Shown: in pieces, positions 3,194 through 62,604 of the stretch | How positions within the stretch are numbered: position 1 is the first letter of the stretch | Layout: every line of letters starts with the position of its first letter | NCBI GenBank assembly: GCA_018821305.1 | Contig: JAHJMN010000021.1 | Span: forward strand, 17,451 to 81,450 | Direction: 5' to 3' | DNA length: 64,000 nucleotides | DNA from: Myxococcota bacterium | GTDB taxonomy: Bacteria; Myxococcota_A; Polyangia; HGW-17 | Position numbers and translations under genes: made by a program | The notes under the pieces: model-generated | Database searches by the model: none | What the model saw: only the letters and a program-made list of their open reading frames with translations | Told to the model about the DNA's origin: nothing

Positions 3194-3348
3194 TATATAG
3201 TTACTGTCCTGAAATACCGAAAATCAAATTTTTTGCCCAATTTTTGCTCAGGACAGTAACCGCAAGGTGTTGAAAATATTACTAGTGGCCTGTTAGAAAT
3301 TTTAATAAATTTCTTCGCGAAGCGAATTACAGGACACTAACTATATAG
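3194..3348 (+). mobile_element. Family-1 MITE-like intergenic element, copy A.
   Basis: The element is ~150 bp with terminal inverted repeats TAGTTACTGTCCTG … CAGGACACTAACTA. It carries an internal 13-bp stem GTTACTGTCCTGA/TCAGGACAGTAAC, the palindromes AGGATTTTTAATAAAATCCT and CTTCGCGAAG, and is flanked by TATATA on both sides. It is near-identical to copies at ~24979, 32325 (x2), 42968, 43716 and 53482. Confidence 0.8.
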
Positions 3349-11901: not shown

Positions 11902-11905
11902 CCTG

Positions 11906-14900: not shown

Positions 14901-15496
14901 ATCGAATAGTTCTTTTTGCCACACAAAACCGCGGGAAGATCCTTGAACTTAGTTCTCTAATGCTGGATCTTAACCTTGAACTCTGGGGTATGGAACATTT
15001 CCCTGATCTTGAAGAAGTTGTTGAGGATGGAGCCTCTTTTGAGGAAAACGCTATAAAAAAGGCAAGGACTCGCTGTATCCAGACCGGACTACCTTGTATA
15101 GCTGATGACAGCGGTCTTGAAGTGAACGCTCTTGATGGAGCGCCTGGAATACTCAGTGCAAGATACGCTGGCGAAGAGGCAACCGATCAGGAGCGAATCA
15201 ACTTCCTCCTGAATAACATGAAGGATAAACGGGAGCGCACTGCGCAATTTGTAAGCGTTATTGCTTTTATAAAAAGCCCTTCTTCAGAACCAATCGTCGT
15301 AAAAGGTGTATGTAAAGGCTCCATTGGATACGAACCAATTGGAAGCCACGGTTTCGGATACGATCCTGTGTTTATTCTTCCTGATGGAAAAACAATGGCT
15401 GAACTCACTATGGAAGAAAAGAATGAAATCAGTCACAGAGCAAAGGCTTTCAAAAAATTACTTCCGTATCTTGAAGAGTTTTCAAATATCCAATAG
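11906..15496 (+). CDS. ChpA-like hybrid chemosensory kinase (2x Hpt, HATPase_c, CheW, REC) continuing in frame into an RdgB/Ham1 nucleoside-triphosphate pyrophosphatase domain. The likely start is the ATG at 11906; the listed ORF begins at 11855.
   Basis: Two Hpt motifs are present (HTIKGAAATVGL, HTLKGAAATVGV). The HATPase G-boxes are present (GRGVGLDLV…GGDISVESITGAGTKFIIRVPL). A CheW-like domain follows (LLFTIGNEVYGVPSTYCIEVME), then a REC domain (ILVCDDSKSVRE…LVLTDLEMPRMTGWEL…FVSKP). After that, MSNRIVLFATQNRGKILEL…FEENAIKKAR…IADDSGLEVNALDGAPGILSARYAG…GFGYDPVF matches RdgB/Ham1. A GAGGAA RBS lies before 11906. Confidence 0.8.
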   Translation: MSEKVISELAQWLKRVEDHPSSLIRNITSTSPIQKYISEIEETCSFPERLRDESILSETGEDDISSFYDEDMLKSLLEVFQAEAYEHIESLAEQLDAWPPGIFDIYRTFHTIKGAAATVGLTKISRASKLLEDVFHSFADTSTVPEDTIFFLLCAASCTLSLMVTDGSDLLPEVSGIIKFACSDPQTLSGKPVSTDEKKNREKKQIELSRNISQPESLNSQELPPDEDTSTSLKECVELDEMTLILMEVFSQEAEEHLSRFDSLVEELQNGNDVFHELFRVTHTLKGAAATVGVNRVSTAAHKLEDFFEKISKSGASLSKNDINLIFHMSELLRRSIEPCDEDVLSELDRTIALIGKNNGTRGEKENLNPDSTESHGISTAVSSEDTGKSNLNPYSTEINETVPGLTKPRGRQTTTGKGEASSSILRIRVDDIDKLINSSEELVHVRTQIEKSRDDFNSITGDLLLSHHTLRHFLMEDRNRMNEAERLERLSELEVEIAELIYNLEHSSINLTRECVSLQNLARIIQERLITLRITNFEILFIKLKQSIRENAFSTFKNINIILEGQNVEVDKGVVDSLSSPLLQIARNAVAHGIEGPQERLIEGKPPDGTIRISAVQEGYFAKITFEDDGRGIDFEQVKSILAKKKFISTEGELKKLTKNDLYEAIFLQGFTTKETADSLSGRGVGLDLVREKIRKLGGDISVESITGAGTKFIIRVPLTTFVSKALLFTIGNEVYGVPSTYCIEVMEHSSRKPIMPGARLIWKSESIPVVPLHYYFGIDRAPIARTPYSIIVLQHGEHHFAIAADATIGIKDVTVKPLGKILGSINYFNGAVISGAGTIQMILSVPFLASLARPTIGFHKGKDIQKHISAPRILVCDDSKSVREAAARIIAGAGYEVTKVQDGWEAWNILHNELFNLVLTDLEMPRMTGWELISEIKRDVLLQNIPVVVLSSRTGETSRDRAMDAGANYFVSKPIKPLILLRVLEQFIPLNESTMSNRIVLFATQNRGKILELSSLMLDLNLELWGMEHFPDLEEVVEDGASFEENAIKKARTRCIQTGLPCIADDSGLEVNALDGAPGILSARYAGEEATDQERINFLLNNMKDKRERTAQFVSVIAFIKSPSSEPIVVKGVCKGSIGYEPIGSHGFGYDPVFILPDGKTMAELTMEEKNEISHRAKAFKKLLPYLEEFSNIQ
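14894..15496 (+). CDS. rdgB: RdgB/Ham1-family dITP/XTP pyrophosphatase module (200 aa). It could alternatively initiate at the ATG at 14894.
   Basis: Conserved Ham1 motifs are present (ATQNRGK, ENAIKKA, ADDSGLEV, GAPGILSARYAG, GFGYDP). It is in frame with the upstream kinase, with no stop and only a weak RBS (GAG). Confidence 0.7.
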   Translation: MSNRIVLFATQNRGKILELSSLMLDLNLELWGMEHFPDLEEVVEDGASFEENAIKKARTRCIQTGLPCIADDSGLEVNALDGAPGILSARYAGEEATDQERINFLLNNMKDKRERTAQFVSVIAFIKSPSSEPIVVKGVCKGSIGYEPIGSHGFGYDPVFILPDGKTMAELTMEEKNEISHRAKAFKKLLPYLEEFSNIQ

Positions 15497-24978: not shown

Positions 24979-25130
24979 TTAGTTACTGTCCTGAAATACC
25001 GGAAATCAAATTTTTAACCAATTTTTTGCTCAGGACAGTAACCGCAAGGTGTTGAAAATATTACTAGTGGCCTGTTAGGATTTTTAATAAAATCCTTCGC
25101 AAAGCGAATTACAGGACACGAACTACTTAG
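24979..25130 (+). mobile_element. Family-1 MITE-like element, copy B.
   Basis: AGTTACTGTCCTGAAATACCGGAAATCAAATTTTTAACC…GCTCAGGACAGTAACCGCAAGGTGTTGAAAATATTACTAGTGGCCTGTTAGGATTTTTAATAAAATCCTTCGCAAAGCGAATTACAGGACACGAACTA is near-identical to copy A. Confidence 0.8.
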
Positions 25131-25218
25131 CCCGCTTCATGAGTAAAAGGACGAAATCTCAAAAGTGAATATTTGACTCAATTTTTTGTAATTTTACATT
25201 GATATTAGATGTTTATGT

Positions 25219-25380
25219 TCTGACCCTATCCCTGTTTACCTGACTATCTTATTCCCAGTTAAAATATTTCAGGTAACCATGAAATCAGTAGAAGGAACAG
25301 GAAACCAGGGGCTCTTTCCCGAAATATTTCTTTAAATTAAGTTACTATCGCATAACTCCGCAAGCGGTATAGCCCGAAGA
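25219..25380 (-). repeat. Family-2 structured repeat, 5' portion in reverse orientation, ending in the CCGCAAGCGGT…ACCGCTTGCGG hairpin.
   Basis: The reverse complement aligns with the 5' ~170 bp of the units at 28646-28966 and 56943-57412 (…TTCAGGTAACC…CAGTAGAAGGAACAGGAAACCAGGGGCTC…). It has a terminal 11-bp palindromic stem. Confidence 0.7.
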
Positions 25381-25415
25381 CCGCTTGCGGAACTGACGGT
25401 CGGGAACTGATGGTT

Positions 25416-26648
25416 TCAAGGATTGGATTCTACTACGGGCCGAGGGAGCTTTGGAAAAGTACCGCGGCAAAATTGAGGATATTCCCCCGGTGGCATCTTT
25501 TCTATTAATTCCAGAAGTTTAATATGTGTTGTGCAGATTACTTCAGGCTTTGAGCAAACAGTTTTAGCGAAAAGCTTCATCACTTCCCAATAAGCCCAAT
25601 CATGCCAGTTTACAAAGTGATGTCCTATACTTATAGGTGCTCTAGCACCGTAATAATTTGTATTAAAATATTCAAGGTAAGTCATAAACACATCATTGAT
25701 AATTCTCGTTTTTGTCTCTGCCGTTAGCCGAACATTTTTATAATACATGTAAAAATTATGATCCATAGCTATAACATGTTTATGATATTTTCTCTTTTTC
25801 CTTATAATATCAGACGGAACGACACCCAGTGGGAAAAACCAGATATTGCCATATTTTTGAGGCCAGTAAGGAGCTACCCGGTATCTACTGGCATCATAAC
25901 GATAATTATGCTTAGCCAATGTTCTATACAAATGACCATTCACGGCTAAATGCGGAGCTCTAAACCCTTTCATATTTGTGATAATATGCTCCCATTCAGC
26001 ACCAGGTTCGACATCAAGACGATTGTTTTTCTTTACATTACGTAATAGATCGGAAAACTGGTTAATTTCCCGATTCCATTGGGATAGAGAAAAAGACTTC
26101 CCGGAAAAATGGCCATTGGCATGGGAAGCAATTTCGTGACCTTCACGATACGCCCTTGTGATGTAATATATATTTTCTACAATTTCATTCTTATTTCGGG
26201 AAAAGCCAATTTCGGAATTGCCTCTTCGACCATCCGGAGAGCGGTATAAGCCTCGGTTTTTATGTTCAAGCATATATACGCCACTAACAAAAAAGGTGAA
26301 CTTGATATTTTCTTCCGATGCAAACTTTAAAACCCAATCCCACATCTGTTTCCGGTGGGGACTATCAAATGACAAAAGTACGACCTGATAAGGACGTCCA
26401 TCACCTGTCTTATAAACTGGGCCATCAGGATATTTGCGAAGAGATGGTTTTATATTGGGTTTAACTGGTTCGGATGGACGGACTTTGGCAATAAAAGTCT
26501 CTTTTTCTAATTCTTTTGCTATTTCATGATGATAGGACTCGTATCTTTTTATTCCATGGTCATCATAATGATGCCCGTTATCCATATGTGTCTGTACACG
26601 GCCGCAAGAGAACACTGTAAAGAATGAAATCAATAAAATCCTAACCAT
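25416..26648 (-). CDS. Polysaccharide deacetylase (NodB/CE4-like) family lipoprotein.
   Basis: The N-terminus is a signal peptide with Cys (LLISFFTVFSCG). NodB-like motifs follow (VVLLSFDSPHRK…FFVSGVYM…IASHANGHFSG). Confidence 0.7.
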   Translation of the reverse strand: MVRILLISFFTVFSCGRVQTHMDNGHHYDDHGIKRYESYHHEIAKELEKETFIAKVRPSEPVKPNIKPSLRKYPDGPVYKTGDGRPYQVVLLSFDSPHRKQMWDWVLKFASEENIKFTFFVSGVYMLEHKNRGLYRSPDGRRGNSEIGFSRNKNEIVENIYYITRAYREGHEIASHANGHFSGKSFSLSQWNREINQFSDLLRNVKKNNRLDVEPGAEWEHIITNMKGFRAPHLAVNGHLYRTLAKHNYRYDASRYRVAPYWPQKYGNIWFFPLGVVPSDIIRKKRKYHKHVIAMDHNFYMYYKNVRLTAETKTRIINDVFMTYLEYFNTNYYGARAPISIGHHFVNWHDWAYWEVMKLFAKTVCSKPEVICTTHIKLLELIEKMPPGEYPQFCRGTFPKLPRPVVESNP

Positions 26649-26800
26649 AAAATCCAATTCTATCAAAGGAATAGACAGTTTTCGGAGAAAAAGGGGCGAA
26701 GTCTTGTGACTTACACTAATAGTTTTAATGATTTTATAAAATGAGTCAATCCGGAAAAAATCATTGGCTCCCAATATTTACAAACCGAGCAACATTGGGT

Positions 26801-28544: not shown

Positions 28545-28645
28545 GAGCGTAACCCTTTCTGACTGATGATTAATTTATTTCTTCGCATATGTCCACATTT
28601 TTCAGTAGACAAATTGACCAATTTCTTTTTTCAATTTTATCATTA

Positions 28646-28966
28646 GACCGCTTCAGAAGAAATACGATAGTTGCCTGTTTTCAAGAAATACAGGTTCAGT
28701 GGCTTTACCTGAACAGCATTGATACTAGACCGCTTTCGAGGTAATACGATTGTGACTCGGTTTAAAGAAATGCTTCAGGAATGAGCCCCGTTTTCCTGTT
28801 CCTGCTACTGATTACCTGAATACCTGATTTTTTTAACAGGTAATCAGGAAGTCAGGTAAACAGGTTCAGGAACAGGTCATAAACATTCGACATCAAATAA
28901 TAATTAAAAAGACCGTAATTTTTATTCAATTTCCCAATTTCGATCCTTTTATTCCGCAAGCGGTCT
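28646..28966 (+). repeat. Family-2 structured repeat, full unit, bounded by AGACCGCTT…AAGCGGTCT.
   Basis: Approximately 300 bp are shared with 56943-57412 (two tandem units). The reverse complement is shared with 25219-25380 and 41649-41750. The unit ends with CCGCAAGCGGTCT. Confidence 0.75.
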
Positions 28967-30689
28967 AGATTGGAGAGAAATAACCAGCTCGGATTTTTGA
29001 AATAATATATTTAAATGTCTTTGCGGTTTCCTTGTCAAGTTCGGGCTCTACCAGTTTACCACCATTTTCCCACGCATCAGATGTACCAAAAAAGTATGCT
29101 GCGTAGTTCTCAGGAATATTAAAGTCAGGTCTTTTAAGCTCGTCCATGCAAGGGGCAGAGGGCTTCCGCGAAGGATCCTTAATATACTCCAGGAAAATGC
29201 TTAAACCGCACCCGGGACGCCCCCGCGTTTCAACCTCGCTTGACCATAAAACACCATGATTTGCCCATGGAATAAGGAAACTGAAATGATTCTCTCCCTG
29301 AAGTTTCGAAACTGAAATAGAGCTTACGTTTTCAGGTGTTTGAAGGTCATGAGTACCGTTAAGCAAAAGAAAATTTCGGTTAGTCTCTGCAAATTTTCCA
29401 TACCATTCGTCTTTTTCATATACTGGCCACGGTGAAGCCCTCTGTGATAATCGATAATCCAGTTTGACTCCTGTTAGAAGATCTTCATATCGCTCTGAAA
29501 CGTAATCCACAGAATAGGCCGGTGAGTGAATCATCTCGCTGACAGCAATATTCAGAAAAAGAATATAGTTAAGTTGAATGACATCCAGCGGAAGATTATC
29601 AATGTGGAGTGGATTATTTTTTTTCTGTCCGAAAACCGTTGCGATGAGGTTATTTATTGCCGTTATGTCTTCGGATGAACATCGGGCAAGTCTGTACCAC
29701 AATGCTACTGAAAGGCTACTGATGGATTTCTGGATGGCAAGACTGAAAGTCAGATAACGGATGGTATCAGCATCAAAAGAGTTGCAGTGACCGCTTTTCA
29801 GGTTATCCAGCGTATCCCTGACATGCGAAACGGCATCACCACCCATTTTTTGCGAACACATCTGGTTCTCATTGCACTCCTTGAGGAGATTTACAAATCC
29901 AGTTTCCGAGTTCACATCATAGTCATCAAGAAAACATGCACCCACAAGGCACATGGAATCAAGGGTAACACTACTGGCTTGATTTGGAAATATCTGTGCA
30001 TATCGGTGGGCCCAGGAACTTCCGTAACTGACACCGTAAACATGATTCCTAATGCCATCTTTTCTAATTAATTCAATAAAATAACCTAAATCTTTTGAAG
30101 CGTTAGTTATATTGAATTTCTCCAACCACTCTTTATTTTCTATTAGTTCACCCTGAATACATTCTGTTATCTCATCCTCACTTATTGCCCGCCCATAAGG
30201 GCCTTCTGTCGAAACGGCTGATGGGCACGTAAGAAAAGTACTATAACCCGTACCTCTATGGTCAAATGCAATAAATTCAGCTTCGGGATCAAGTAAAGCC
30301 ATTTCCGGCATATAATATGGAAAATCAATCGTTGACGAGCCCCCAGGCCCTCCCTGTAGCATTACGACTGTTCGCTTTACTTCCCTTAATGCAATTGTCT
30401 TTTTCACTCGGATTGAAATTAGTTGATTCTCTGGATCATTCCAGTCAAGGGGAACTGAAAAATCAGCGCACAATGCATTGTTTTCCGGGCCGCCCTCTGT
30501 AAGAGGACATGGATACCATTCTATTTCCTGGGAAATCTGCTCATTTGAAAACATTTCTACATAGCTAATTTCAGATTTGTCATTGTTATTGTTAGTATTA
30601 TTACTATTATTGACTGTGTTATTTTTCTCATTTTCACATGAAAAGAAAATTATACCGAGTAAGACTATATAAATAAAATACTTCTTCAT
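28965..30689 (-). CDS. Alpha/beta-hydrolase (S33/TAP-like peptidase family) lipoprotein with an Asn/Thr-rich linker.
   Basis: The lipoprotein signal is MKKYFIYIVLLGIIFFSC. The oxyanion/nucleophile motifs GGPGGSS and GVSYGSSWA (GxSxG) are present. The linker is NNTVNNSNNTNNNND. Confidence 0.65.
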   Translation of the reverse strand: MKKYFIYIVLLGIIFFSCENEKNNTVNNSNNTNNNNDKSEISYVEMFSNEQISQEIEWYPCPLTEGGPENNALCADFSVPLDWNDPENQLISIRVKKTIALREVKRTVVMLQGGPGGSSTIDFPYYMPEMALLDPEAEFIAFDHRGTGYSTFLTCPSAVSTEGPYGRAISEDEITECIQGELIENKEWLEKFNITNASKDLGYFIELIRKDGIRNHVYGVSYGSSWAHRYAQIFPNQASSVTLDSMCLVGACFLDDYDVNSETGFVNLLKECNENQMCSQKMGGDAVSHVRDTLDNLKSGHCNSFDADTIRYLTFSLAIQKSISSLSVALWYRLARCSSEDITAINNLIATVFGQKKNNPLHIDNLPLDVIQLNYILFLNIAVSEMIHSPAYSVDYVSERYEDLLTGVKLDYRLSQRASPWPVYEKDEWYGKFAETNRNFLLLNGTHDLQTPENVSSISVSKLQGENHFSFLIPWANHGVLWSSEVETRGRPGCGLSIFLEYIKDPSRKPSAPCMDELKRPDFNIPENYAAYFFGTSDAWENGGKLVEPELDKETAKTFKYIISKIRAGYFSPI

Positions 30690-32119
30690 TTTGCCTCCAT
30701 GATTGAGCAATCAACGTACTCAAGGGTATTGTCGCATACACAGTTTTCAGTTAACTGATATGCGGACATTACTTCACTGGCATCATCCGTAAGGGAAAGG
30801 TTTATTGCGATTTGGAGTTCTTCACCTATTCCAAAATTTGTATTTTCTTCAGCACATAGATAAATACTATTATGGGTATCGTCTACCGGCAGAGCCATTG
30901 GGCATATTTTTCTATAATCGCTTCCACTTATCCTTTTATATTCATACTTATACATATTAAAGCCAATTAACGAATCCGGATTCATCACGCCATTACTTTC
31001 AGACAGCTCGCTCACCAAGCCATTTCTTGAAAATGTTAACTCTGTTATATTCAAAGATATATTGTCAGTTCCAAGGACTTGATAATCACCAAGTAGAGTC
31101 AGCGTTATTTCAGCATCATCATCATCAGATTCAACCCAGGTAGCAAATCTGGTATACGAACTTGCATCAATCTCTCCTTCGGACAACGCAACGGAAAAGT
31201 CTCCCCATCCGGGTGTTTCATTTCCATTCCCGACACGTTCAACTATCGGACCTCGAAATTGACCAGTCAGATATTTATCTGTCCCCGGTTCCAGCATGTC
31301 ATCAGGAAGCACGCACTCGAGGGAAGGGACTTCCTCAAGCAAACTGTAAAAGCTTTCTTTATTTACAACTTGTTTTCTTGCTATGTAATAACAATATTGT
31401 TCATTATCTTCTTCAAGGCTCGGAATCTGCTGAATTCTTTCCAAATCCGCTGAAAACTCAACGTTACCTACTACCGTGAGCACTTCACCTGCATCAAAAT
31501 CATCAACATATGAGGTATCGATCTCAATCAGGTTCTCCGGATTATCAGTGCTCAGCAAAGTGATACACCTCTTGTAAAAATAAGAATTATCCACATGAAG
31601 AAATACTTCCGTATACAGATGTTCCCCAACTTGAGCTCCCTGTAGAAATTTATTCCCACTGTTTTTTAACTCCCTGAGAGTTTCCGTAGGCAGATAGATA
31701 TACATCGTGCTGTATGTACCGGCGAAAATAACACTCTCATATGGGTTTTCTATGGCCTCCAAAGGCAACAGACTACTTATCACAATATATTCAGTTCCTT
31801 CGGAATTCTCATACTGATTAATCACTGGTCTGTCGTCATATTCCAGCTCCAATGTGCCAGTAAAGAGTGTATTGAAACCAAGCGCATTTTCATGAGTTCC
31901 CGTCGAAAGAGCTTCTGCCGTATTTATTTTTCCACGAAATTCAAAGATAAAAGCAGGTATTGCAACAGGATTAACTAAATCCACTTCCAGTTGGGTGGTG
32001 CTGTTGGTGTTATTGGTATTACTGGTATTATTTGAACTCGTTGTGTTTGAGTTGTTATTCTCCCCTGAATCGCATGAGTTAAAAACCAGAAGCATTAAAA
32101 GAGTCGTTAAAATTTTCAT
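30686..32119 (-). CDS. Hypothetical lipoprotein with an Asn/Thr/Ser-rich linker.
   Basis: An AGGAGG RBS precedes the ATG at 32119. The signal is MKILTTLLMLLVFNSC, followed by NNNSNTTSSNNTSNTNNTNST. The remainder has no recognisable domain. Confidence 0.55.
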   Translation of the reverse strand: MKILTTLLMLLVFNSCDSGENNNSNTTSSNNTSNTNNTNSTTQLEVDLVNPVAIPAFIFEFRGKINTAEALSTGTHENALGFNTLFTGTLELEYDDRPVINQYENSEGTEYIVISSLLPLEAIENPYESVIFAGTYSTMYIYLPTETLRELKNSGNKFLQGAQVGEHLYTEVFLHVDNSYFYKRCITLLSTDNPENLIEIDTSYVDDFDAGEVLTVVGNVEFSADLERIQQIPSLEEDNEQYCYYIARKQVVNKESFYSLLEEVPSLECVLPDDMLEPGTDKYLTGQFRGPIVERVGNGNETPGWGDFSVALSEGEIDASSYTRFATWVESDDDDAEITLTLLGDYQVLGTDNISLNITELTFSRNGLVSELSESNGVMNPDSLIGFNMYKYEYKRISGSDYRKICPMALPVDDTHNSIYLCAEENTNFGIGEELQIAINLSLTDDASEVMSAYQLTENCVCDNTLEYVDCSIMEAK

Positions 32120-32324
32120 ATTTCCTCCTTCTTCCAATCCTGGAAGCATTTTGTTACCTCCGGAAAGTATCTTTGTTTCCGGATAGATAGTTAGCAGACG
32201 GATCACCGCCATATGAGGAGATATATTTAAATTCTTCAATAGAATCGTCCTGATACGAAATTCAGGACGTATCAAAACAGGTTTCCGGACGATGCAGCCC
32301 CCATATTCAATTCTTTTATTTTAA

Positions 32325-32650
32325 TTAGTTACTGTCCTGAAATACCCAAAATCAAAGTTTTCACTTGATTTTAGGTCAGGACAGTAACCGCAAGGTGTTG
32401 AATTTATTGTAGTGGCCTGTTAGGATTTTTAATAAAATCCTTCGCGAAGCGAATTACAGGACACGAACTAATTAGTTACTGTCCTGAAATACCGAAAATC
32501 AAATTTTTCGCCCGATTTTTGCTCAGGACAGTAACCGCAAGGTGTTGAATTTATTATAGTGGCCTGTTAGGATTTTTAATAAAATCCTTCGCGAAGCGAA
32601 TTTCAGGACACGAACTAATTAGCTCGTGTCCAGTATTCAGGACATTAACA
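32325..32650 (+). mobile_element. Two tandem Family-1 MITE-like copies (C at ~32325-32474, D at ~32473-32622) plus a 28-bp terminal fragment.
   Basis: There are two consecutive ~148-bp units, each with the full set of hairpins. The tail CTCGTGTCCAGTATTCAGGACATTAAC repeats the terminal motif. TAATTA flanks both sides. Confidence 0.8.
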
Positions 32651-41607: not shown

Positions 41608-41648
41608 AATTTTGGTTCTGATAAAATTATTTCTAACAATTTCAAAGA

Positions 41649-41750
41649 ATTTCAGGTAACCAGAAAATCAGTAGCAGGAACAGGAAAACAGGGGCTCTTT
41701 CCTGAAGAATTTCTTTTAAACGAACAACAATCGTATTGCGGGATCTAATC
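41649..41750 (-). repeat. Family-2 repeat, partial unit in reverse orientation.
   Basis: TTTCAGGTAACCAGAAAATCAGTAGCAGGAACAGGAAAACAGGGGCTCTTTCCTGAAG…CAATCGTATTGCGG is the reverse complement of the unit core. It lies between the convergent sfsA and kbl genes. Confidence 0.7.
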
Positions 41751-42944
41751 TATCACGCCGTGTTTGCGACCGACCTTTTCAAATGCAGCAACTGCTTTTT
41801 CCAATTGTTCCATGGAATGCATTGCACTGATTTGAGTTCTGATACGGGCTTTTTCTTTGGGAACGACAGGATAAGAGAAGCCTATAGCATAAACACCTTC
41901 GTCAAGGAGATCATCAGCTATCATTGAAGCAAGGCGAGCGTCGCCAAGCATAACGGGAATGATTGCATGATCTTTTCCAGCAAGATTAAACCCCAGTCGG
42001 CTCATTTCTTCTCTGAAGAATTTCATGTTCCCTGCTAACTTATCGATAAGCTCGGTGGATTCCTGTACTATTTCAAGCACTTTAAGCGTTGTTGCAGCAA
42101 TTACGGGAGCAAGGGTATTGGAAAATAGATAAGGTCTCGATCGCTGTCTTAAAATATCTATTACTGCTTTATGTGAAGCAGTAAAGCCTCCACTTGCGCC
42201 ACCCATGGCTTTTCCGAGGGTACTCGTAACAATGTCGACTCGGTCTATGACATTATTATATTCATGGCTGCCACGCCCTGTTTTTCCGATGAAACCAGTC
42301 GCGTGTGAATCGTCGACCATAACTATCGCGTTATATTTGTCTGCAAGATCGCATACTCCAGCAAGATTCGCGATAATGCCATCCATAGAAAAAACACCGT
42401 CAGTTGCGATCATTTTCAATCTAAGACCCTGAGCATCTGCTTCAATAAGTTGCTTCTCGAGATCTTCCATATCATTGTTAATATATCGGAATCTTTTGGC
42501 TTTACACAGTCTGACGCCGTCTATTATTGATGCATGATTCAAAGTATCACTAATAATTGCGTCCTGCTCTGTAAGCAGTGTTTCAAAAAGACCACCATTA
42601 GCATCAAAACAACTTGAATAGAGAATTACATCTTCTTTTCCAATGAAAGCAGCGAGTTTTGCTTCCAACTCTTTGTGCAAATCAAGTGTACCTACTATAA
42701 ACCTTACGCTGCTCATTCCAAATGCATATTTATCGAGGGCGGCTTTAGCAGAGTCAACAAGTCGTGGATCATTGGCAAGTCCCAGATAATTGTTTGCACA
42801 CATATTAATAACTGGTTCGCTGCGTCCGGCGACTTTTATAAGAGAGCTTTGTGGAGTAACTACAATCCGTTCAGATTTAAACAACCCTGCATCTCGTATG
42901 TTTTTCAGTTCAGTTTCGAGTATTTCCTTGAAATTACCGTACAT
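41745..42944 (-). CDS. kbl: 2-amino-3-ketobutyrate CoA ligase (glycine C-acetyltransferase).
   Basis: The protein aligns along its full length with Kbl (…[15 protein letters not shown]…[16 protein letters not shown]…[15 protein letters not shown]…DDSHATGF…[14 protein letters not shown]…). An AGGAGA RBS is present. Confidence 0.92.
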
Positions 42945-42967
42945 AATGAGTCTCCTGCTTTCTATGG

Positions 42968-43137
42968 TTAGTTCAGGACAGTAACTGTTTAGTTCGTGTC
43001 CGGAAATTCGATTCGCGAAGAATTTTGTTAAAAATTCTATCCGGCCACTACCAGTGAATTCAAGACATTGCGGTTACTGTCCTGAGTAAAAAATCGACAA
43101 AAAATTTAAAAACCGTATTTCAGGAAAGTAACTGGTT
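42968..43137 (-). mobile_element. Family-1 MITE-like element, copy E, in reverse orientation and diverged.
   Basis: The reverse complement reads …CAGTTACTTTCCTGAAATACGG…ACTCAGGACAGTAACCGCAATG…TTCGCGAATCGAATTTCCGGACACGAACTAAACAGTTACTGTCCTGAAC. Confidence 0.7.
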
Positions 43138-43715: not shown

Positions 43716-43862
43716 TCAGTCACTGTCCTGAAAATAAAGAAATCATATTTTTTAGCCGATTTTTGGCTCAGGACAGTGACCACAAGGTGTTCCATTTATT
43801 GTAGTGGCCTGTTAGGATTTTTAATAAAATCCTTCGTAAAGCGAATTACAGGGTACGTACTT
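43716..43862 (+). mobile_element. Family-1 MITE-like element, copy F.
   Basis: The stem is GTCACTGTCCTGA…TCAGGACAGTGAC, with a compensatory A>C / T>G change that preserves pairing. CCTGTTAGGATTTTTAATAAAATCCTTCGTAAAGCGAATTACAGG follows. Confidence 0.8.
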
Positions 43863-43967
43863 ATAATATTAAAAATCGGTTTCTTTGATACAACAATCTC
43901 TCTCAGGAGATGATCTCAAAACCAATTGACCCCGAAAGATACCTGATTTTTTACTTTTCAGGAATTA

Positions 43968-46139: not shown

Positions 46140-49100
46140 TCAGGCCATAAAATCCAGTAGGTTATTCTTTGCACTCTTCGTGCCAGTAGCTTTCCTGTTT
46201 GACTCCGCCTCTGTATTTTTACTGTTATTACTATCAGTTATGTCAATTTCATAAGTTTCATCATCACTGGTTGATGTCCGGTGATGTCTCTCAGAAGAAC
46301 TACCAAACTCAAAAGATAACAGGTTATGTCCTTGATTTTTTAACATCTTTTCAATATTAAGAGCATCGTTTTTAATCTGTTCGATTAAATTGGTATCCTT
46401 ACCGTCAATGTATATACGGATCCCATCATTTTCCTCGCGAACTCTGATTTCGGTCCCTTTATAGGTAACACGAATTTCTTTGCCATCTTCAGCACTTACA
46501 GCCTTTTCCATTATTTTTTCAATAACTTTTTCCGGTGCATCAGTCTTCTCAGGCGCCAAGGGAGGCTGGGCTTCTTTTATTTCCGGTGCAAATTTGAATT
46601 CCACCTTCTCATTATTAACTACAGTGACGATATCTTTATCTATTTTTGACTTCCCTTTTTGATAAGTAGTTGTATTTTCTGGTTTTATAGTGTTATTTTC
46701 AACATTATTGAGTCTCTCAGGGTTATCAAGAACATCAATATCTGTCAAACCGGACGAAAAAGACTCATAAGAAGGTGTCAAAATTTCCTTTTCTGAAACC
46801 GGGATTTTGACGTTTTTTGTTTGCAATTCAGGATTTCTAACAGGTGCAGATCTATCATCATAAGATCCAAAGGTTTTCCCTGTCGATTTTTCACCTTGAG
46901 TACTTGAAAATTTCGCTTCAATCTCTATTTCCTTTTCCATATCAAGAGTTTCTACTCGCTCAATCGTAGTATTATCTGCTGTCTTGAAATCATTATTCTT
47001 TTTGTTTTCAGTTTCCGCCATTATGGTAGTTTTTGTTTCGGTTTTCTGGTTGGCATCCGGTGTATTTCTATTATCCACCGCAACTTCGCTGCCTTTAATT
47101 GCTCTTGTATTTGCTTTGATATCAGTTTCAATCGGCGTCCTGACACCGTCATCAAAATCCTGGATTAACATTTCATCTATATAATCGTTACGTTTTCCAC
47201 TTGTTTCAAAAGACAGGTTTTCTATATGTTCATCTGAACCTGCCATCGTGGGATTGCTTACTGCTGTTTTCAGTCCGAAAAAGTCTTTTTGTACAGTAGC
47301 GGGCAATTCCTCAGAAGCAGCAACAGCATAATTTTGGGCTTCAGACATGGGATTACTTTTTTGAGTTACATCTGGAATGGAATCTAAACGCACCTGAGTT
47401 TCTGCTTTTTCCTTTTCCGTGGAAACATCAGTATCCTGGAAATTAACTACAGAATCATCGTTAACCTCTGGATTATAAAGCGAACTGGATTTCCCTTCTT
47501 TCGGCACTTCAGGTGATTCCTGGACTCTTGCGTATTCGGATCCTTGACTCGATTCAACTTTTCCAATTATTTCGTCTTCCACTGCCACTGCTGCATCTTC
47601 GTTTACAACATTTGTTTGTACTGCCGCTGTATTTGACTTATCAACTTCGTTGACAACTTCATTGTCCACTGCTGCTGGATTAAACTCTTCTACTTCACTG
47701 ACAACTTCATTGTCCACTGCTGCTGGATTAAACTCTTCTACTTCGTTGAGAACTTCATCGTCCACTGCTGCTGGATTAAACTCTTCAACTTCACTGACAA
47801 CTTCATCGTCCACTGCTGCTGAATTAAACTCTTCAACTTCACTGGCAACGTCAAATTCCAGAGGATATTCTTTACTTTCTATTTTTGAGTTAACCAGAAT
47901 CTCATCGAAAACTGTTTCTGTCATATCAGTAACATATGTATTTTCTTCGGGCTTTTGTTCTGAAACTGACTTATCCCTGACTACTTTTGCAGAAATTATC
48001 TCATCTGGCCCACTGACAACTTCCGATCCCTCAGAATATTCCATCCCTTTAATCCCTGATCCATCGAATTTTACTTGAAGCTCATCAAGACTTGCTTCCG
48101 TATCCTTAATAAATGATTTTTCTACGGGATTTGATTTTTGACTTAACTCATCTCCCACAACCTCCAGCCCACTTGATGATTGATTTAACTCATCGCCTTC
48201 ACCGACAACTTCAACTTTTGGTTCCACCTTTGCCGGAACTGACTCTTCTGGACCATGGCTAACTCCCGTTTCATCGGGAAAATCTGTTTCATTGAATCCA
48301 ATTTCGTCAAAATTTGATTGAAGTTCATCAAGACTTGCTTTCGTTTCCTTAACAAATGATTTTTCTACGGGATTTGATTTTTGACTTAACTCATCTACCA
48401 CAACCTCCAGCCCACTTGATGATTGATTTAACTCATCGCCTTCACCGACAACTTCAACTTTTGGTTCCACCTTTGCCGGAACTGACTCATCAGCCCCACT
48501 GATTATTTCCATTTCTTCTGGATAGTCCACACTCTTCATTACTTTTGCGTGAGAGTCTAAATCCCTGAGGAATTCTTTTCCTGAATCAACAGAGGATACG
48601 CTGACTTCTATCTCATTATTATTGAGATATTCCCTGTCGTGTGTTTCATTCATTTGATATTTTACAGGTTCTACAAAATCTGCATCGATCTCTCCATCCT
48701 CATTCTTACTGTCTGTAGTCTTTCCAACTTCCTCCTGAGAAACCATATAATTTTCAAACATGGGATCATCTTCTAAAAGCAGACTATTAAATTCACCTGT
48801 TTCCGTTGCGAATACTATTCGGCGCTTTTCTATTTTTCCAGTGTTATCATTTAAAGATTCAGTCAGAATACTATCCACTTCATCTTCTATTTCAATAAAC
48901 TGTCCTGTCTTATACTGTTTAGAAACGGATCCTGTTGATGTATTTATTTTATTCAGGAAATCTTTTTGTTCTTTATTTCTATTTGTTTTTTCATTTCCAC
49001 TGTTAATACTTGAAATTTCTTTTGTTTCATTCAGTTCTTCTTTTTCAGTTCCAGGCTCTAAAGCAATATCACTTCCTGCGATACTTCCGGACTTTTCCTT

Positions 49101-49949
49101 ACGCCCATCGTTTGATGGTAGAACAGTTAAAAATACTGGAAATTCCCCTGAATTACTTAATGGCAGGTCAACTTGATTATATTTTTCACTCGATTTTTTA
49201 TCTTTCAGCAAATCGTTTTTAACATCAACGAAATATACATCTGATTCATCTTCTCCATAGCTTTCAGAAATACTGAAACTTACCCCCTGCTCATCAACCA
49301 TTACCTTATCCGGCTTCTTACCTACATTAACAAAATTATCAAGTTGTGGAAATGCTTTTGATTGTACTTCACCCCGGAACATCGGCTTTTCCCCGGAAGA
49401 TTTTGGGAAAACACTTTCAGGGAATATTTTCTTAATCTTTTCTTTTCTCTTATCATTTTCAGTGTATTTTTTAATATCGTCCTCACTCAGGGTCAAGGCA
49501 GCACTTTTCTTTTCAACGCTTTGTTTGAAACTTGTGGATTCATCTCCTCCAAATCTAATGTGCCGTAAATCCGTCACCGCCCGGTCAAGGTTTTCTTCCT
49601 CCATTATATAATTCAGGAGAAGGAATTTTTCACCTGTTGTACTTTTTGTCCCTTTTTTACTATCATCTGTAGTCTCTGGACTATCAATCAGTTCTTTTTT
49701 CACATCACCGACTAATTTTGTTTTCGGAGGGGTTTCTTCCATCGGTTTGGTTTTCGGAGGGGTTATATCAACCGATTCTTTTTTTTCGAAAAATACTTCC
49801 ACATCATTCAGAATAGTACTGAAGTTGTCCTTCTGAAACATACTCAAACTGTATTTCTTCGGTTTCGGAGGCATTTCTTTATTGTTTTGAATCCCGTTAG
49901 TTTTCATGGCTTTACCGCTCTGAATTATAGGGTTTAAAAGGGGAAGCAT
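46140..49949 (-). CDS. fliK: Flagellar hook-length control protein FliK-like, unusually large (1269 aa), acidic, with internal tandem repeats. An alternative start lies at 49907.
   Basis: The C-terminal ~100 aa resemble the FliK C-terminal (Flg_hook) domain (…EIRVTYKGTEIRVREENDGIRIYIDGKDTNLIEQIKNDALNIEKMLKNQGHNLLSFEF…). The gene lies between flbB-like and flgD. Two ~80-aa tandem repeats and 5x EVEEFNPAAVDDEVV repeats are present. Confidence 0.65.
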   Translation of the reverse strand: MLPLLNPIIQSGKAMKTNGIQNNKEMPPKPKKYSLSMFQKDNFSTILNDVEVFFEKKESVDITPPKTKPMEETPPKTKLVGDVKKELIDSPETTDDSKKGTKSTTGEKFLLLNYIMEEENLDRAVTDLRHIRFGGDESTSFKQSVEKKSAALTLSEDDIKKYTENDKRKEKIKKIFPESVFPKSSGEKPMFRGEVQSKAFPQLDNFVNVGKKPDKVMVDEQGVSFSISESYGEDESDVYFVDVKNDLLKDKKSSEKYNQVDLPLSNSGEFPVFLTVLPSNDGRKEKSGSIAGSDIALEPGTEKEELNETKEISSINSGNEKTNRNKEQKDFLNKINTSTGSVSKQYKTGQFIEIEDEVDSILTESLNDNTGKIEKRRIVFATETGEFNSLLLEDDPMFENYMVSQEEVGKTTDSKNEDGEIDADFVEPVKYQMNETHDREYLNNNEIEVSVSSVDSGKEFLRDLDSHAKVMKSVDYPEEMEIISGADESVPAKVEPKVEVVGEGDELNQSSSGLEVVVDELSQKSNPVEKSFVKETKASLDELQSNFDEIGFNETDFPDETGVSHGPEESVPAKVEPKVEVVGEGDELNQSSSGLEVVGDELSQKSNPVEKSFIKDTEASLDELQVKFDGSGIKGMEYSEGSEVVSGPDEIISAKVVRDKSVSEQKPEENTYVTDMTETVFDEILVNSKIESKEYPLEFDVASEVEEFNSAAVDDEVVSEVEEFNPAAVDDEVLNEVEEFNPAAVDNEVVSEVEEFNPAAVDNEVVNEVDKSNTAAVQTNVVNEDAAVAVEDEIIGKVESSQGSEYARVQESPEVPKEGKSSSLYNPEVNDDSVVNFQDTDVSTEKEKAETQVRLDSIPDVTQKSNPMSEAQNYAVAASEELPATVQKDFFGLKTAVSNPTMAGSDEHIENLSFETSGKRNDYIDEMLIQDFDDGVRTPIETDIKANTRAIKGSEVAVDNRNTPDANQKTETKTTIMAETENKKNNDFKTADNTTIERVETLDMEKEIEIEAKFSSTQGEKSTGKTFGSYDDRSAPVRNPELQTKNVKIPVSEKEILTPSYESFSSGLTDIDVLDNPERLNNVENNTIKPENTTTYQKGKSKIDKDIVTVVNNEKVEFKFAPEIKEAQPPLAPEKTDAPEKVIEKIMEKAVSAEDGKEIRVTYKGTEIRVREENDGIRIYIDGKDTNLIEQIKNDALNIEKMLKNQGHNLLSFEFGSSSERHHRTSTSDDETYEIDITDSNNSKNTEAESNRKATGTKSAKNNLLDFMA

Positions 49950-53481: not shown

Positions 53482-53672
53482 TCCATTCGTGTCTTTATTT
53501 TCAGGACATTAACTAGTCCGTGTCCTGAAAATCAATTTTTATCAAAATTGAGCATGTTTAGGAAAACATGCTATTCAGAACACTATAATAATTTCAAAGT
53601 CTTCATTCTTAATATCCTGGGTAAAAATTTGGTGCAAAATTTAAAAGATCGCATTACAGGACATTAACTATA
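53482..53672 (+). mobile_element. Family-1 MITE-like element, copy G (diverged), located between fliG and fliH.
   Basis: …TTCAGGACATTAACTAGTCCGTGTCCTGAAAATCAATTTTT…GCATTACAGGACATTAACTATA shares the terminal motifs with the other copies. The internal region has diverged. Confidence 0.6.
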
Positions 53673-55783: not shown

Positions 55784-56737
55784 ATGATTTCAATGAAAAA
55801 ACTATTCCTGACTCTGATCTTTTTAACGGTATTTACCGGTTGCGACGATGATAACTCTAACAATAGCAACAATACGAACAGCAACAATACTAATAACAGT
55901 AATAATTCCACAAATAACACCAATAATGTCAATCCTTGTGATGGAGTCAACTGTTCCGGTCATGGACAATGTGTCGTCAGCGGTTCTGCAGCCTCCTGTG
56001 ATTGTGATGAAGGCTGGGTTCCATCGGGATTAACCTGCGTTGAAGCTCAGGATCCGTGTACAGGCATAGATTGCTCAGGTCATGGGGATTGTTCATCAAC
56101 GAACGGCACAACACCTATCTGTACTTGTGACAACGGTTATGTAAATGCTGGCACCGGTGGTCTTGAATGCATCGAAGAATCCAATGACTGCACTGGCGTA
56201 ACCTGCTCAAATCATGGAACCTGCGTAATTCAGTCTGATGGTCCAGTTTGCGCCTGTGAAAATGGTTATACTCCATCCGCTTCTCATGGTCTTGATTGTG
56301 TTCCCGTGGATCAGGTTTGTATCGGAGGGGCTATCGACTATGATTTTGATAATGATGGCACCAATGATACATGGTTTGAACCGAACTCTGATGAGTGCCT
56401 GCAGTATGAAATTCTGAACAGAACCCGGGCAACCCATGATGACGAAGGAACCCCGGAGTGCCATAAACCCCTCATGTGGAATGTTTTGTGGGCTGCACAC
56501 GGCCGTAATCACTCAATCCGCATGGCAAATCAGGGAAGCCTGTTCCATGACGATTACCCATCAGGTCAGAACTGCGCATACGGCTGCGGTCCCGATTGCG
56601 AGATGAACATGTATATGACCGGAGAAGGCGAAGATCACTGCCCTCCCCTTTCTCATCACTGCAATATAATGCGCTGCAGTTTCACCCAGGTAGGAATCGG
56701 CTACAGCGGCACCTGGAACACCCAAAACTTCCTTTAA
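55784..56737 (+). CDS. Lipoprotein with an Asn-rich linker, four EGF-like Cys-rich modules and a C-terminal CAP/SCP/PR-1-like domain.
   Basis: The lipobox is VFTGC, followed by NSNNSNNTNSNN…. The EGF-like modules repeat C-x-G-x-x-C-S-x-H-G-x-C. The C-terminal CAP-like motifs are …HCNIMRCSFTQVGIGYSGTWNTQNF (HYTQVVW-like). Confidence 0.6.
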   Translation: MISMKKLFLTLIFLTVFTGCDDDNSNNSNNTNSNNTNNSNNSTNNTNNVNPCDGVNCSGHGQCVVSGSAASCDCDEGWVPSGLTCVEAQDPCTGIDCSGHGDCSSTNGTTPICTCDNGYVNAGTGGLECIEESNDCTGVTCSNHGTCVIQSDGPVCACENGYTPSASHGLDCVPVDQVCIGGAIDYDFDNDGTNDTWFEPNSDECLQYEILNRTRATHDDEGTPECHKPLMWNVLWAAHGRNHSIRMANQGSLFHDDYPSGQNCAYGCGPDCEMNMYMTGEGEDHCPPLSHHCNIMRCSFTQVGIGYSGTWNTQNFL

Positions 56738-56942
56738 CAAACCCACCCGGGTATTCCGAAATTCCTTGCCTTTCCGATTTCCAGTGTTTGAAAATCCTGT
56801 CATTTATAGAACTACGAAAAGTTTTTTAAAGCGTCGAGGGAAAAGAATGAAGCGACAAAAACATTCTGTGGGGCAGCGGAATAACAAAATGGGGATGTGA
56901 ATTATTTTTGTCATACCGAAAATTTGCAGCGGCGCCCGCGTT

Positions 56943-57412
56943 ATACCGCTTTCGAGGTAATACGATAGTAACTTAATTTAAAGAAAAGCTTCAGGAGAAA
57001 GACCCTGATTTTGCCTTGCATTCCGCTGCGCGAAATTGCTTGCCTGTTTCTGCTACTGAATTCCTGAATACCTGAAATTTTAAACAGAGACTCAGGTAGT
57101 CAGGCAAACAGGTTCAGGAACAGGGCGTAAATATTCAATATCAAATAATAATTAAAAGGAACATAATTTTTAATTCAATTTCCCAATTTCGTTCCTTTTA
57201 CTCCGCAAGCGGTCTAATACGATTGTTACTTAATTCAAAGAAAGCCTTCAGGAGAACGACCCTGATTTTGCCTTGCATTCCGCTGCGCGAAATTGCTTGC
57301 CTGTTACTGCTACTGATTTCCTGTTGCCTGATTTTTTTACAGGTAATCAGAAAGTCAGGAAATCAGGTTCAGGAACAGGGCGTAAATATTCAATATCAAA
57401 TAATAATTAAGT
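56943..57412 (+). repeat. Family-2 structured repeat as two tandem units (~56943-57215 and 57216-57412).
   Basis: Unit 1 ends CCGCAAGCGGTCT and abuts AATACGATTG of unit 2. It is >85% identical to 28646-28966. Confidence 0.75.
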
Positions 57413-57415
57413 GGT

Positions 57416-58588
57416 CTATTCGATTACAGAGTTTGAGACTTGAGGATCGCCGTTGGCCAGGACGAAAATTCCGGGGTATCCCTGAGTTTCAAAGCCATCG
57501 GAAGGATTGCGCTGGAGGGTACTGTTTTCGATGACAAGATGACCAGACCGGTCGTTGGAAACGAAGAAAATGGCACCGCCACCTTCGTTTGCGTGATTGT
57601 CGGTGATTCTTGTGCCGCAGATGCGAAGAGTAAAAGTGTTTCCGTCGTTATAAATGGCTCCACCGCTACCGCCCCCGGGAGTTCCGGACTGGGCAGGGTT
57701 TGCACCGTTTCCGATGGCGCGGTTGTGAGTGAAAAGGCTGTTGATTACGTAGTACGAAACACCAATTGAACTGAGGCCACCGCCGTTGGAGCAGTAATTG
57801 CCCAAATCCTCCCGACCACCGAATGTAGAATTTACAACGTAGACAGGTGCATCTTCAAATTGATCGAAAACCCGAATGGCAGCGCCACCGACATCGGGCC
57901 CTGTTTCGTCACACTGGTTTGTGAAAAACCGGCTGTTTATGACCTTAAACCGACCACCTCTGACAAAGATGGCTCCTCCGCCGTCGGGATCATGCTCCCC
58001 GGTGGAGTTACCGTTAATAAACGTAAGATTCTGCACCGTGAGCCGCGGATGATCCTGATCGTTGCAATGGGGCGTCGTCCAAACCTGATCCTGATCGCAG
58101 GTGTTCATGTAGAGGATTCGGCGAGCACCGTCGCCATTGAGAGTAACCATATTTCCGCCATCGATGACGATTTCCGGCCCGGTATTGTTGAATATCTTCG
58201 CCGTTTCGGTAAGGGTAATGATAACGGGCTCGGGTCCGCAGTTGAAGGTGATAATGCCACCGGCAGCGACGGCAGCGACAAATGCTTCTGATGTACAACT
58301 CTCCGCCGTTCCGTCACCCACAACTATCGTCGGATTAGATGTATCCTCGAGGGCGGCATCGTCGGGAATGGAACAGTTGCCATCAGGATTTCCCGTGGGG
58401 GGAAGCTCCGCCAGATGTTCATTGATTGCGCAGAATGTTCCGCCCCAGTAACCTCCAGCAGCTGTGCAATCTCCGTCAGTTACGCAGAGATTAAGGTAAT
58501 CAGCACTGCAAACGGCCTTTTTCCCGCCGCCGCCGGAGCTGCAGGCGGAAAAAATACCCACAATAGATAAAAATAAAAGCTTTTTCAT
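57416..58588 (-). CDS. Lipoprotein with a right-handed beta-helix carrying Pmp-type GGAI/FxxN repeats.
   Basis: The lipobox is IFSAC. Repeated GGGAIF/GGAAIR/GGSGGAIY/EGGGAIFF and FINGN/FFTNQ/FTHNR/ITDNH motifs are present. The region is GC-rich (~50+%). Confidence 0.6.
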   Translation of the reverse strand: MKKLLFLSIVGIFSACSSGGGGKKAVCSADYLNLCVTDGDCTAAGGYWGGTFCAINEHLAELPPTGNPDGNCSIPDDAALEDTSNPTIVVGDGTAESCTSEAFVAAVAAGGIITFNCGPEPVIITLTETAKIFNNTGPEIVIDGGNMVTLNGDGARRILYMNTCDQDQVWTTPHCNDQDHPRLTVQNLTFINGNSTGEHDPDGGGAIFVRGGRFKVINSRFFTNQCDETGPDVGGAAIRVFDQFEDAPVYVVNSTFGGREDLGNYCSNGGGLSSIGVSYYVINSLFTHNRAIGNGANPAQSGTPGGGSGGAIYNDGNTFTLRICGTRITDNHANEGGGAIFFVSNDRSGHLVIENSTLQRNPSDGFETQGYPGIFVLANGDPQVSNSVIE

Positions 58589-60487: not shown

Positions 60488-60997
60488 ATGTTTAAAAAAA
60501 TCTTTATTACTTGCGCAATAGCAGTACCTTTCTTCTTAGTAGGTTGCGACGATGATTCAACTAGAAATAGTTGCCAGAAACTGGGGGACAAAGCTGATTC
60601 ATGTGGATTACTTTCAGAAGGAATATACGACTGCAGTGATTTCGTAGAAAATGCTCAGACAAAATGTGAAATGAACTGTCTGAGTTCATTGACTTGCACT
60701 GAAATTGAAAACGCATTCTGTGATTGGAATTTTACTCAAGACTTTCAAAATTGCGTAGCCTCATGTCCGGAGGTTACCTGGGAATGTACAGATGGAGAAG
60801 AAGTAGGTTACGATGACCGATGTGATGGTTATGTAGACTGTGAAGATGGCTCTGACGAAGTTGGCTGTCCAGTGTTTTCTTGCGATAGCGGAGAAACAAT
60901 TGATGCAAATTTCGAATGTGATGGCGAAGATGATTGCTCTGATGGATCCGACGAAGTTGGCTGTCCAGATGTTGCTCAACTAATTTGCTCAGAATAA
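60488..60997 (+). CDS. Small Cys-rich lipoprotein with two LDL-receptor class A-like modules.
   Basis: The lipobox is FLVGC. CDGYVDCEDGSDEVGC and CDGEDDCSDGSDEVGC match the LDLa C-x-D-x-x-D-C-x-D-G-S-D-E signature. A strong AAGGAGG RBS is present. Confidence 0.6.
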   Translation: MFKKIFITCAIAVPFFLVGCDDDSTRNSCQKLGDKADSCGLLSEGIYDCSDFVENAQTKCEMNCLSSLTCTEIENAFCDWNFTQDFQNCVASCPEVTWECTDGEEVGYDDRCDGYVDCEDGSDEVGCPVFSCDSGETIDANFECDGEDDCSDGSDEVGCPDVAQLICSE

Positions 60998-62459: not shown

Positions 62460-62532
62460 GCGGGATTAACTCAGTTGGTAGAGTGTCAGCTTCCCAAGCT
62501 GGATGTCGCGGGTTCGAATCCCGTATCCCGCT
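62460..62532 (+). tRNA. tRNA-Gly (anticodon CCC).
   Basis: The 73-nt sequence GCGGGAT/ATCCCGC folds as a cloverleaf: acceptor stem, D arm ACTC…GAGT, anticodon loop TTCCCAA, and T arm GCGGGTTCGAATCCCGT. No CCA is encoded. Confidence 0.85.
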
Positions 62533-62604
62533 CTAAAAATATACAAAGTATAACTTCTTTTGCGAAGCAAATATGCAGAGCCTGCTCCCCTGTTTCCAGT
62601 TGGA

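Follow-up and report, generated by a model that had tools for sequence, protein, structure and literature searches.

Family 2, a probable TA-ended MITE family at gene 3' ends in an uncultured Myxococcota genome

What kind of entity is the structured repeat that occupies, as two tandem units, positions 56942 to 57418 of the 64,000-nucleotide stretch analyzed here (the window)? An earlier note on this DNA had assigned it to a repeat family, called Family 2, that could be either another MITE or a set of small structured RNAs. The window is a chromosomal segment with a GC content of 40.3% that carries rnpA-rpmH-yidC, a chemotaxis cluster, a flagellar cluster (flgE to fliG) and housekeeping genes. 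Read set SRR2544012, which includes its genome, was obtained from deep-subsurface biofilms (PMC5364579). Based on the evidence presented below, Family 2 is probably a bacterial MITE family that had not been described before, made up of non-autonomous mobile DNA elements of this uncultured Myxococcota genome. It is best read as an ordinary kind of genomic parasite and not as a new RNA gene.

Repeat finding, alignment and a family profile built for nhmmer and run over the window bore out that the family exists at the places claimed for it. Instead of the five loci announced, however, there are four, all of them intergenic (28644-28967, 56942-57418, 25128-25392 and 41641-41747), and they hold six units (Table 1). 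The copy near 25 kb, described as partial, turned out to be full length (25128-25373 plus a solo terminal palindrome to 25391) with a decayed right half, and the hairpin at this copy has a stem of 12 bp (TCCGCAAGCGGT / ACCGCTTGCGGA) and not of 11 bp. The tandem pair at 56.9 kb stood, but its second unit does not end at 57412: it has suffered an internal deletion and keeps a GTGGTCTA terminus. An identity above 85% had been claimed; the plus-strand units are 84-88% identical over aligned bases and 70-85% when the 32-nt indel and other gaps are counted. Among all Family 2 units the identity is 76-88% over aligned bases and lower with indels (70-88% overall). The inverted termini were confirmed as imperfect terminal inverted repeats of about 25 nt. 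A 33-nt core pattern, which in its first form catches four of the five core-bearing units, occurred four times in the window and never in 100 shuffles, and the palindrome CCGCAAGCGGT occurred four times against 0.27 expected, each time inside a Family 2 locus. The large intergenic share attributed to Family 2 and to a second family, Family 1, was also real: they occupy 1164 nt (about 17%) and 1135 nt, respectively, of the ~6.7 kb of intergenic DNA in the window, jointly about 34%, and every Family 2 unit is intergenic.

Table 1. Units of Family 2, features associated with them and copies of Family 1 in the window. Matches are those of the Family 2 nhmmer profile.
Feature	Position	Strand	nhmmer match (E value)	Description
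Mini unit	28644..28725	+	28644-28691 (1.8e-5)	82 nt; left terminal repeat TAGACCGCTTCAGAAGAAATACGAT and short hairpin; internally deleted derivative directly before full unit
Full unit	28726..28967	+	28726-28968 (5e-76)	left TIR 28726-28750; central CCTG/CAGG hairpin 28795-28876; 3' hairpin ~28906-28950; right TIR 28943-28967
Full unit, first of tandem pair	56942..57216	+	56942-57216 (2e-77)	32-nt insertion 57006-57037; core hairpin 57043-57124; 3' hairpin 57154-57199; right TIR ends at 57216
Second tandem unit	57217..57418	+	57210-57414 (1e-53)	core 57300-57379; 3' hairpin deleted; terminal GTGGTCTA (57411-57418) retained
Full-length decayed unit	25128..25373	-	25371-25128, minus strand (2.5e-71)	right arm of core with many uncompensated substitutions; 3' end abuts Family 1 copy 24980-25130
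Perfect 12-bp hairpin	25357..25391	.		solo right-TIR palindrome TCCGCAAGCGGT facing the unit's left TIR ACCGCTTGCGGA
5' partial unit	41641..41747	-	41744-41641, minus strand (9e-28)	head and left core arm only; right arm and tail missing
TAG stop of alpha/beta-hydrolase gene 28965..30710	28965..28967	-		formed by the element's terminal CTA; gene reads into tail
TAG stop of gene 57416..58588 (390-aa protein)	57416..57418	-		formed by the element's terminal CTA; gene reads into tail
TAG stop of kbl (41745..42944)	41747-41745	-		first three bases of partial unit 41641..41747; kbl reads into head
Family 1 copies	3198-3348, 24980-25130, 32326-32476, 32473-32623 (plus solo end to ~32660), 43717-43867	+		
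Family 1 copies	42985-43134 (plus solo end 42960-42984), 53509-53670	-		

A full Family 2 unit measures 242-275 bp. Its termini read TAGACCGCTTGCGG... and belong to the terminal inverted repeats (TAGACCGCTTKCGRGRTAA..., also written TAGACCGCTTKCGRGRTAAWASGAT); units start with TAGACCGCTT(T/G)CG(A/G)GGTAATACGAT and end with ...TCCTTTTAYTCCGCAAGCGGTCTA, the two ends being inverted over about 25 nt. TAGACCGCTTTCGAGGTAATACGAT agrees with the reverse complement of ATCCTTTTATTCCGCAAGCGGTCTA at some 20 of 25 positions, and 88% of the cells of the terminal helix are paired. The dinucleotide TA was found at every intact end, including those of the only two copies known beyond the window, a tail in contig L001 of the same genome and a tail in a related species. 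Just inside the left end lies a small terminator-like hairpin followed by a T-run (CAGG-N8-CCTG TTTT). The centre of the unit is a palindrome of about 82 nt with a CCTG-rich left arm and a CAGG-rich right arm, the motifs being spaced 6-8 nt apart; in unit 28726 it forms 28 Watson-Crick pairs with symmetric internal loops between them. An AT-rich stretch and then the 3' hairpin (AAAAGGAAC...GTTCCTTTT) follow. The extra 32-nt module is confined to the pair at 56.9 kb. The two units of this pair have one terminal palindrome in common: the right TIR of the first also stands where the second, which has no separate left TIR, would begin with one. A degenerate counterpart of the solo palindrome of the 25-kb copy probably precedes unit 56942, at 56919-56941. 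Stop codons interrupt most reading frames of each unit, and the longest open stretch, of 71 codons, encodes a peptide for which a search of a protein collection returned no relatives. The GC content of the units is 37-39% against 40.3% for the window, so that they are AT-rich by a small margin. Copies are found in both orientations, and the routes of decay seen among them are substitutions, internal deletions and truncation.

The units lie immediately at the ends of genes. At three loci the terminal TAG of the element doubles as the stop codon of the adjacent gene (28965, 57416 and 41745). The 12-bp hairpin sits 25 nt beyond the stop codon of gene 25416..26774. Since TAG is the stop codon of 15 of the 47 genes in the window, its use as such is unremarkable. 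All three stops are at native positions. The ends of Kbl homologs differ from that of Kbl by no more than one residue; the hydrolase ortholog of the related species stops at the same codon position with TGA instead, and its ortholog of gene 57416..58588 has TAG at the same position. The genes at 41745, 25416 and 56737 enter an element by its head and those at 28965 and 57416 by its tail; as genes enter Family 2 from either end, there is no orientation bias. Family 1 behaves alike at fliG, whose stop codon (53668-53670) is the terminal TAG of a Family 1 copy. The kbl stop codon is the exact starting point of three unrelated palindromic elements, one per lineage: the window has Family 2 there, the close relative Family 1 and contig L089 a third element. 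The latter (L089:11190-11351, partly also L007:11220-11304) is GC-rich and about 162 nt long; it has inverted arms of 57 nt (CTTAGCGTCCGTCGC...GCGACGGACGCTTAG) with TTA on either side and belongs to a distant relative with a 72% identical Kbl.

The related species is represented by five contigs from read set SRR32001354, reached via protein clusters at 90% identity, and its genes are 82-90% identical in nucleotide sequence to those of the window. Family 2 occupancy differed at all four comparable orthologous sites, with copies only in the window at three and only in the relative at one, and this is the decisive result for mobility. In the window, the mini unit and a full unit, 324 nt in all, lie between the hydrolase gene and the nucleotidyltransferase gene; at the orthologous site (that of 28545-28964) the gap of the relative measures 159 nt, lacks Family 2 and contains a decayed Family 1 relic. 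Removal of the element and one TA at 28644-28967 gave no clean alignment to the relative, whose site carries that relic, and no clean empty allele was recovered. After the stop of the ortholog of 57416, the relative shows TAG and then 128 nt of unrelated sequence without Family 2. The kbl stop, which meets a Family 2 head in the window, lies in the relative as a TAA within a Family 1 terminal repeat. Downstream of flgE the situation is the reverse: a Family 2 tail whose last bases are exactly GGTCTA occurs in the relative, and the window has Family 1 instead. Beyond the Family 2-free ortholog of gene 57416-58588, the contig of the relative ends in an 8-nt tandem repeat, (GAAGGCAG)n, at L172:4350-4380; it shares the CAGG periodicity of the Family 2 core and might mark the border of a diverged element akin to Family 2 that the profile missed.

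Searches beyond these two genomes gave no Family 2 copy in public collections outside this lineage, either by core pattern or by similarity. The 33-nt core pattern was absent from 185,579 species representatives, JGI metagenomes and viral contigs. In the genome and metagenome collections the nearest Kbl relatives are at most 73% identical in amino acid sequence, and neither family was present in them. BLAST comparisons of the units with plasmids and phages returned chance fragments only. Judged by sequence, Family 2 matches no known family. The window itself contains no transposase and no autonomous parent element with Family 2 termini, and about 17 kb of further sequence from the same genome held no Family 2 copies. 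However, the short-read contigs of this genome terminate within Family 2 copies at 28753, 25240 and 41668, and the window contains no exact repeat of 31 nt or more to account for these breaks, which together hint at more copies elsewhere. Other assemblies of the same genome are fragments, 99.9-100% identical and broken within the repeats. Contig L001 (JAHJNQ010000026.1) tracks the window from 43831 down to 32319 and then passes through the Family 1 tandem into a Family 2 tail and on to genes foreign to the window; the switch, at 11499-11575, is probably a chimeric join through the repeat, and it reveals a further copy of Family 2, one into which Family 1 has inserted at a TA. A protein search with the partial gene on the far side of L001 did not recover the exact protein.

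We then weighed the explanations that compete with a MITE. The earlier note's other suggestion, structured RNA, would make the elements functional RNAs or 3'-UTR modules (terminators, stabilisers or protein-binding hairpins) retained for their fold. Strong predicted folds agree with it (z of -5.0 for unit 28726, -4.8 for unit 56942 and -6.7 for an opposite strand), as do the 82% of cells that pair when the structure of unit 28726 is taken as reference, against 32-53% with the partners slid, the location of elements downstream of genes and the five terminator-like hairpins in 56700-57500 against 0.8 expected. A single clear double change, A-U in unit 28726 to U-A in unit 57199, preserves one core pair. 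Yet the opposite strand folds equally well or better, which is the behaviour of any DNA palindrome, and covariation is not convincing: on an alignment of the four long units, the RNAalifold covariation term was unfavourable (+2.06, with one compensatory pair), and in the structure of unit 28726 the compensatory pairs numbered 4 of 66, a count reached by 19 of 500 shuffles, at the low power of n=4. The decayed 25-kb copy, with its many uncompensated changes, folds only slightly better than shuffles (z -2.3), and the 41.7-kb copy lacks one arm altogether. At the Rfam gathering score only the tRNA-Gly of the window passes and no family lies over Family 2; at a permissive threshold the elements attract only chance matches to miRNA hairpins. 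Moreover, the units show both orientations with respect to the gene upstream of them, and occupancy is not conserved between the related species. A CsrA-binding sponge RNA was also rejected, the GGA motifs being unconserved and located in stems. Given the lack of convincing covariation (n=4), of an Rfam match and of orientation bias, a structured-RNA gene family is not supported and we regard it as very unlikely. Of the earlier suggestion only the MITE part was supported, by TIRs, TA ends, both orientations and differing occupancy.

A mosaic like those of REP/BIME or BOX repeats is unlikely too. Here the palindrome CCGCAAGCGG would be the functional unit, around which longer units are built, and their spread would be due not to TA-targeted cut-and-paste transposition but to a RAYT-type (IS200/IS605-like) enzyme, or else to recombination and replication slippage. 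The solo palindromes (one facing another copy at 25357-25391 and the probable degenerate one at 56919-56941), the tandem pair with a single palindrome at its junction and the optional modules (32-nt insert, 3' hairpin, mini unit) recall BOX or BIME more than a simple cut-and-paste MITE, and the extragenic position at gene 3' ends fits as well. However, the inversion of the ends extends over about 25 nt, far past the 10-nt palindrome, no conserved GTAG-type tetranucleotide stands beside the palindromes and no RAYT gene occurs within the window, where no palindrome is found free of a Family 2 locus. The remaining idea, that the copies are immobile leftovers of a larger element (an IS or a prophage end) or local segmental duplications, seems scarcely credible. 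It would suit the age of the copies, 70-88% identical, and the fact that several are partial. But the unit boundaries are identical at independent loci, precisely TA...TA, also in the related species, the flanks of the copies are mutually unrelated, complete units with both termini exist at three loci and searches of plasmid, phage, genome and metagenome collections gave no similar sequence. The MITE reading is the one supported by the terminal inverted repeats, the TA ends, the non-coding and slightly AT-rich sequence, the occurrence in both orientations, the decayed and mini forms, the nesting with Family 1 and the differences in occupancy.

Several known systems resemble Family 2 in part. 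TA ends and TIRs are typical of bacterial MITEs, and those of the RUP type are thought to be moved in trans (PMC2229807). RUP and the cyanobacterial Nezha, both IS630-mobilised and TA-flanked, share with Family 2 the small size, the non-coding, slightly AT-rich and intergenic sequence, the TIRs and the TA ends, as well as an end-to-end hairpin fold and stop codons in the reading frames. However, RUP shows no sequence similarity to Family 2; its 107 bp are less than half the length of a Family 2 unit (242-275 bp), and the periodic CCTG/CAGG central palindrome sets Family 2 apart from it. BOX elements of Streptococcus pneumoniae are modular like Family 2, with optional or repeated internal modules, variable length and TIRs that pair in the transcript. 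They often reach into the very 3' end of a gene and supply its stop codon, which is the case for 36 genes of one pneumococcus genome (PMC3049150). Yet BOX belongs to another phylum and has no sequence similarity to Family 2, and its A, B and C parts are well-defined multi-copy cassettes, whereas the modularity of Family 2 is deduced from six units. Correia elements (CREE/NEMIS) of Neisseria are flanked by TA, have terminal repeats of about 26 nt, lie next to genes, are co-transcribed with them and form hairpins cut by RNase III (PMC2229807). By this analogy Family 2, if transcribed, would probably behave like them, although Correia elements are shorter, at 100-155 bp, and are distinguished by an IHF site, promoter elements and copy numbers in the hundreds; sequence similarity to Family 2 is not expected. 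The REP/BIME elements of enterobacteria and pseudomonads are also extragenic palindromes at gene 3' ends that form mosaics and facing pairs. However, the REP unit has 20-40 nt, a conserved GTAG-type tetranucleotide and RAYT genes, in contrast to the ~25-nt inverted ends on a unit of about 250 bp, and the RAYT-free window, of Family 2.

As to the mechanism, we infer transposition itself, the family of the transposase, a true TA duplication and the effects on RNA. A transposase encoded elsewhere in the genome would recognise the terminal repeats and insert the element at TA. The TA at every end points to a TA-targeting enzyme, and Family 2 is most likely a MITE of the TA-targeting type. These TA flanks, the one feature that links Family 2 to an IS630-type transposase, suggest that the enzyme would be IS630/Tc1-mariner-like. 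Elements of the IS630/Tc1-mariner group duplicate TA, and IS630 prefers CTAG. The terminal TA could, however, be part of the terminal repeat and not a target duplication. A 3-bp TAN duplication was dropped since the third base matches in two of three testable elements, which are too few; an IS200/IS605-type palindrome-associated element was dropped because the end palindromes are mutually inverted and not direct, and an integron attC site because the R'/R'' consensus is missing. In so compact a genome, with just 10% intergenic DNA, the insertions that survive would be those in short stretches downstream of genes, many of them in a stop-codon TA. Insertion into the TA of a stop codon, the first base of the element being G, would regenerate TAG and leave the protein unchanged, which would explain how such insertions survive in a genome with so little intergenic DNA. 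Later decay by substitutions and internal deletions would yield the mini units, truncations, solo termini and tandem fusion, and Family 2 copies would additionally have been hit by the younger Family 1. When transcribed in a 3' UTR, the units would form very stable hairpins and may serve as terminators or RNase targets, a role that would be a by-product and not the reason for the existence of the elements. With copies 70-88% identical Family 2 may be long inactive, and in that case the turnover between species could partly be deletion and not insertion.

Family 1 looks like a younger second MITE of about 150 nt, with terminal repeats TAGTTACTGTCCTGAAAT / ATTACAGGACACGAACTA and TA at its ends, and it occurs also as solo ends, two-end mini forms and a tandem pair. 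Its copies are up to 91-94% identical, compared with 70-88% in Family 2, and nesting was observed: a Family 1 copy abuts the Family 2 tail at TA in L001, and the two families lie end to end at 25130. Both facts suggest that Family 2 is the older family. The Family 1 copies at 3198, 42985 and 43717 are absent from the relative or reduced there to terminal-repeat remnants, and that at fliG is a remnant of about 45 nt. The relative has Family 1 copies of its own elsewhere (L170:9303-9424, L170:12801 to the contig end and L168:2031 to the contig end).

Other features of the window were recorded along the way. Contig L084, from the same sample, matches the window from 64000 down to 62456, just 5' of tRNA-Gly-CCC (62460-62533). 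Past the match, L084:7423-16875 carries different genes, for a periplasmic binding protein and two giant VIT/VWA proteins, and on the other side of 62456 the window has a higher GC content at 54-62 kb (44-47%); the divergence could be strain-level variation by the tRNA or an assembly chimera. Gene 60488-60997, for a small protein with two LDL-receptor class A repeats, is absent in the relative, in which only 59 nt (L172:1383-1441) separate the MFS transporter gene from the 534-aa gene. Gene 55784-56737 encodes EGF-like repeats, which like LDL-receptor class A are a eukaryote-type domain in a bacterial lipoprotein context. The predicted lipoproteins 28965-30710, 30686-32275 and 55784-56737 have long Asn/Ser/Thr-rich low-complexity linkers (e.g. 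NNSNNTNSNNTNN) directly past the lipobox cysteine. Between flgD and fliJ/fliI, at the position of fliK, the gene 46140-49949 for a 1269-aa acidic protein contains a 48-nt tandem repeat (at least four copies) and a 243-nt duplication, with repeats at 47597-47860 and 47983-48468. Its middle (~47240-48730) remained unaligned to the relative's ortholog of 1213 aa, which makes the repeat region hypervariable. Finally, a single ORF of 1213 codons at 11855-15496 joins a CheA-like kinase (Hpt, HATPase_c, CheW and receiver) to a C-terminal Ham1/ITPase (residues 1019-1204), and is either an unusual fusion or two genes merged through read-through.

The three elements at one kbl stop codon hint at stop-codon targeting or adoption by the host. 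Instead of reaching gene ends at random and being retained there by selection, the TAG-tipped elements of Family 1 and Family 2 might actively target stop codons (the TA in TAA/TAG), or the host might have adopted them as stop-codon-plus-hairpin modules that form gene 3' ends, in which case the CCTG/CAGG core could be a binding platform for a host or transposase protein. This proposal is quite unlikely; if active targeting were true, it would be a neat case of a harmless-landing strategy for a transposon. The stop-codon association as it stands has precedents in BOX, RUP and Correia elements. For those who annotate such genomes there is a caution, as the repeat supplies several stop codons and an element could pass for a small RNA or a terminator. 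Family 2 and Family 1 repeats account for the shattering of the organism's short-read assemblies at the positions given above, and one third of the intergenic DNA here is repeat. Family 2 would represent a new MITE family, with Family 1 as a second, from a scarcely sampled lineage of uncultured Myxococcota in deep groundwater.
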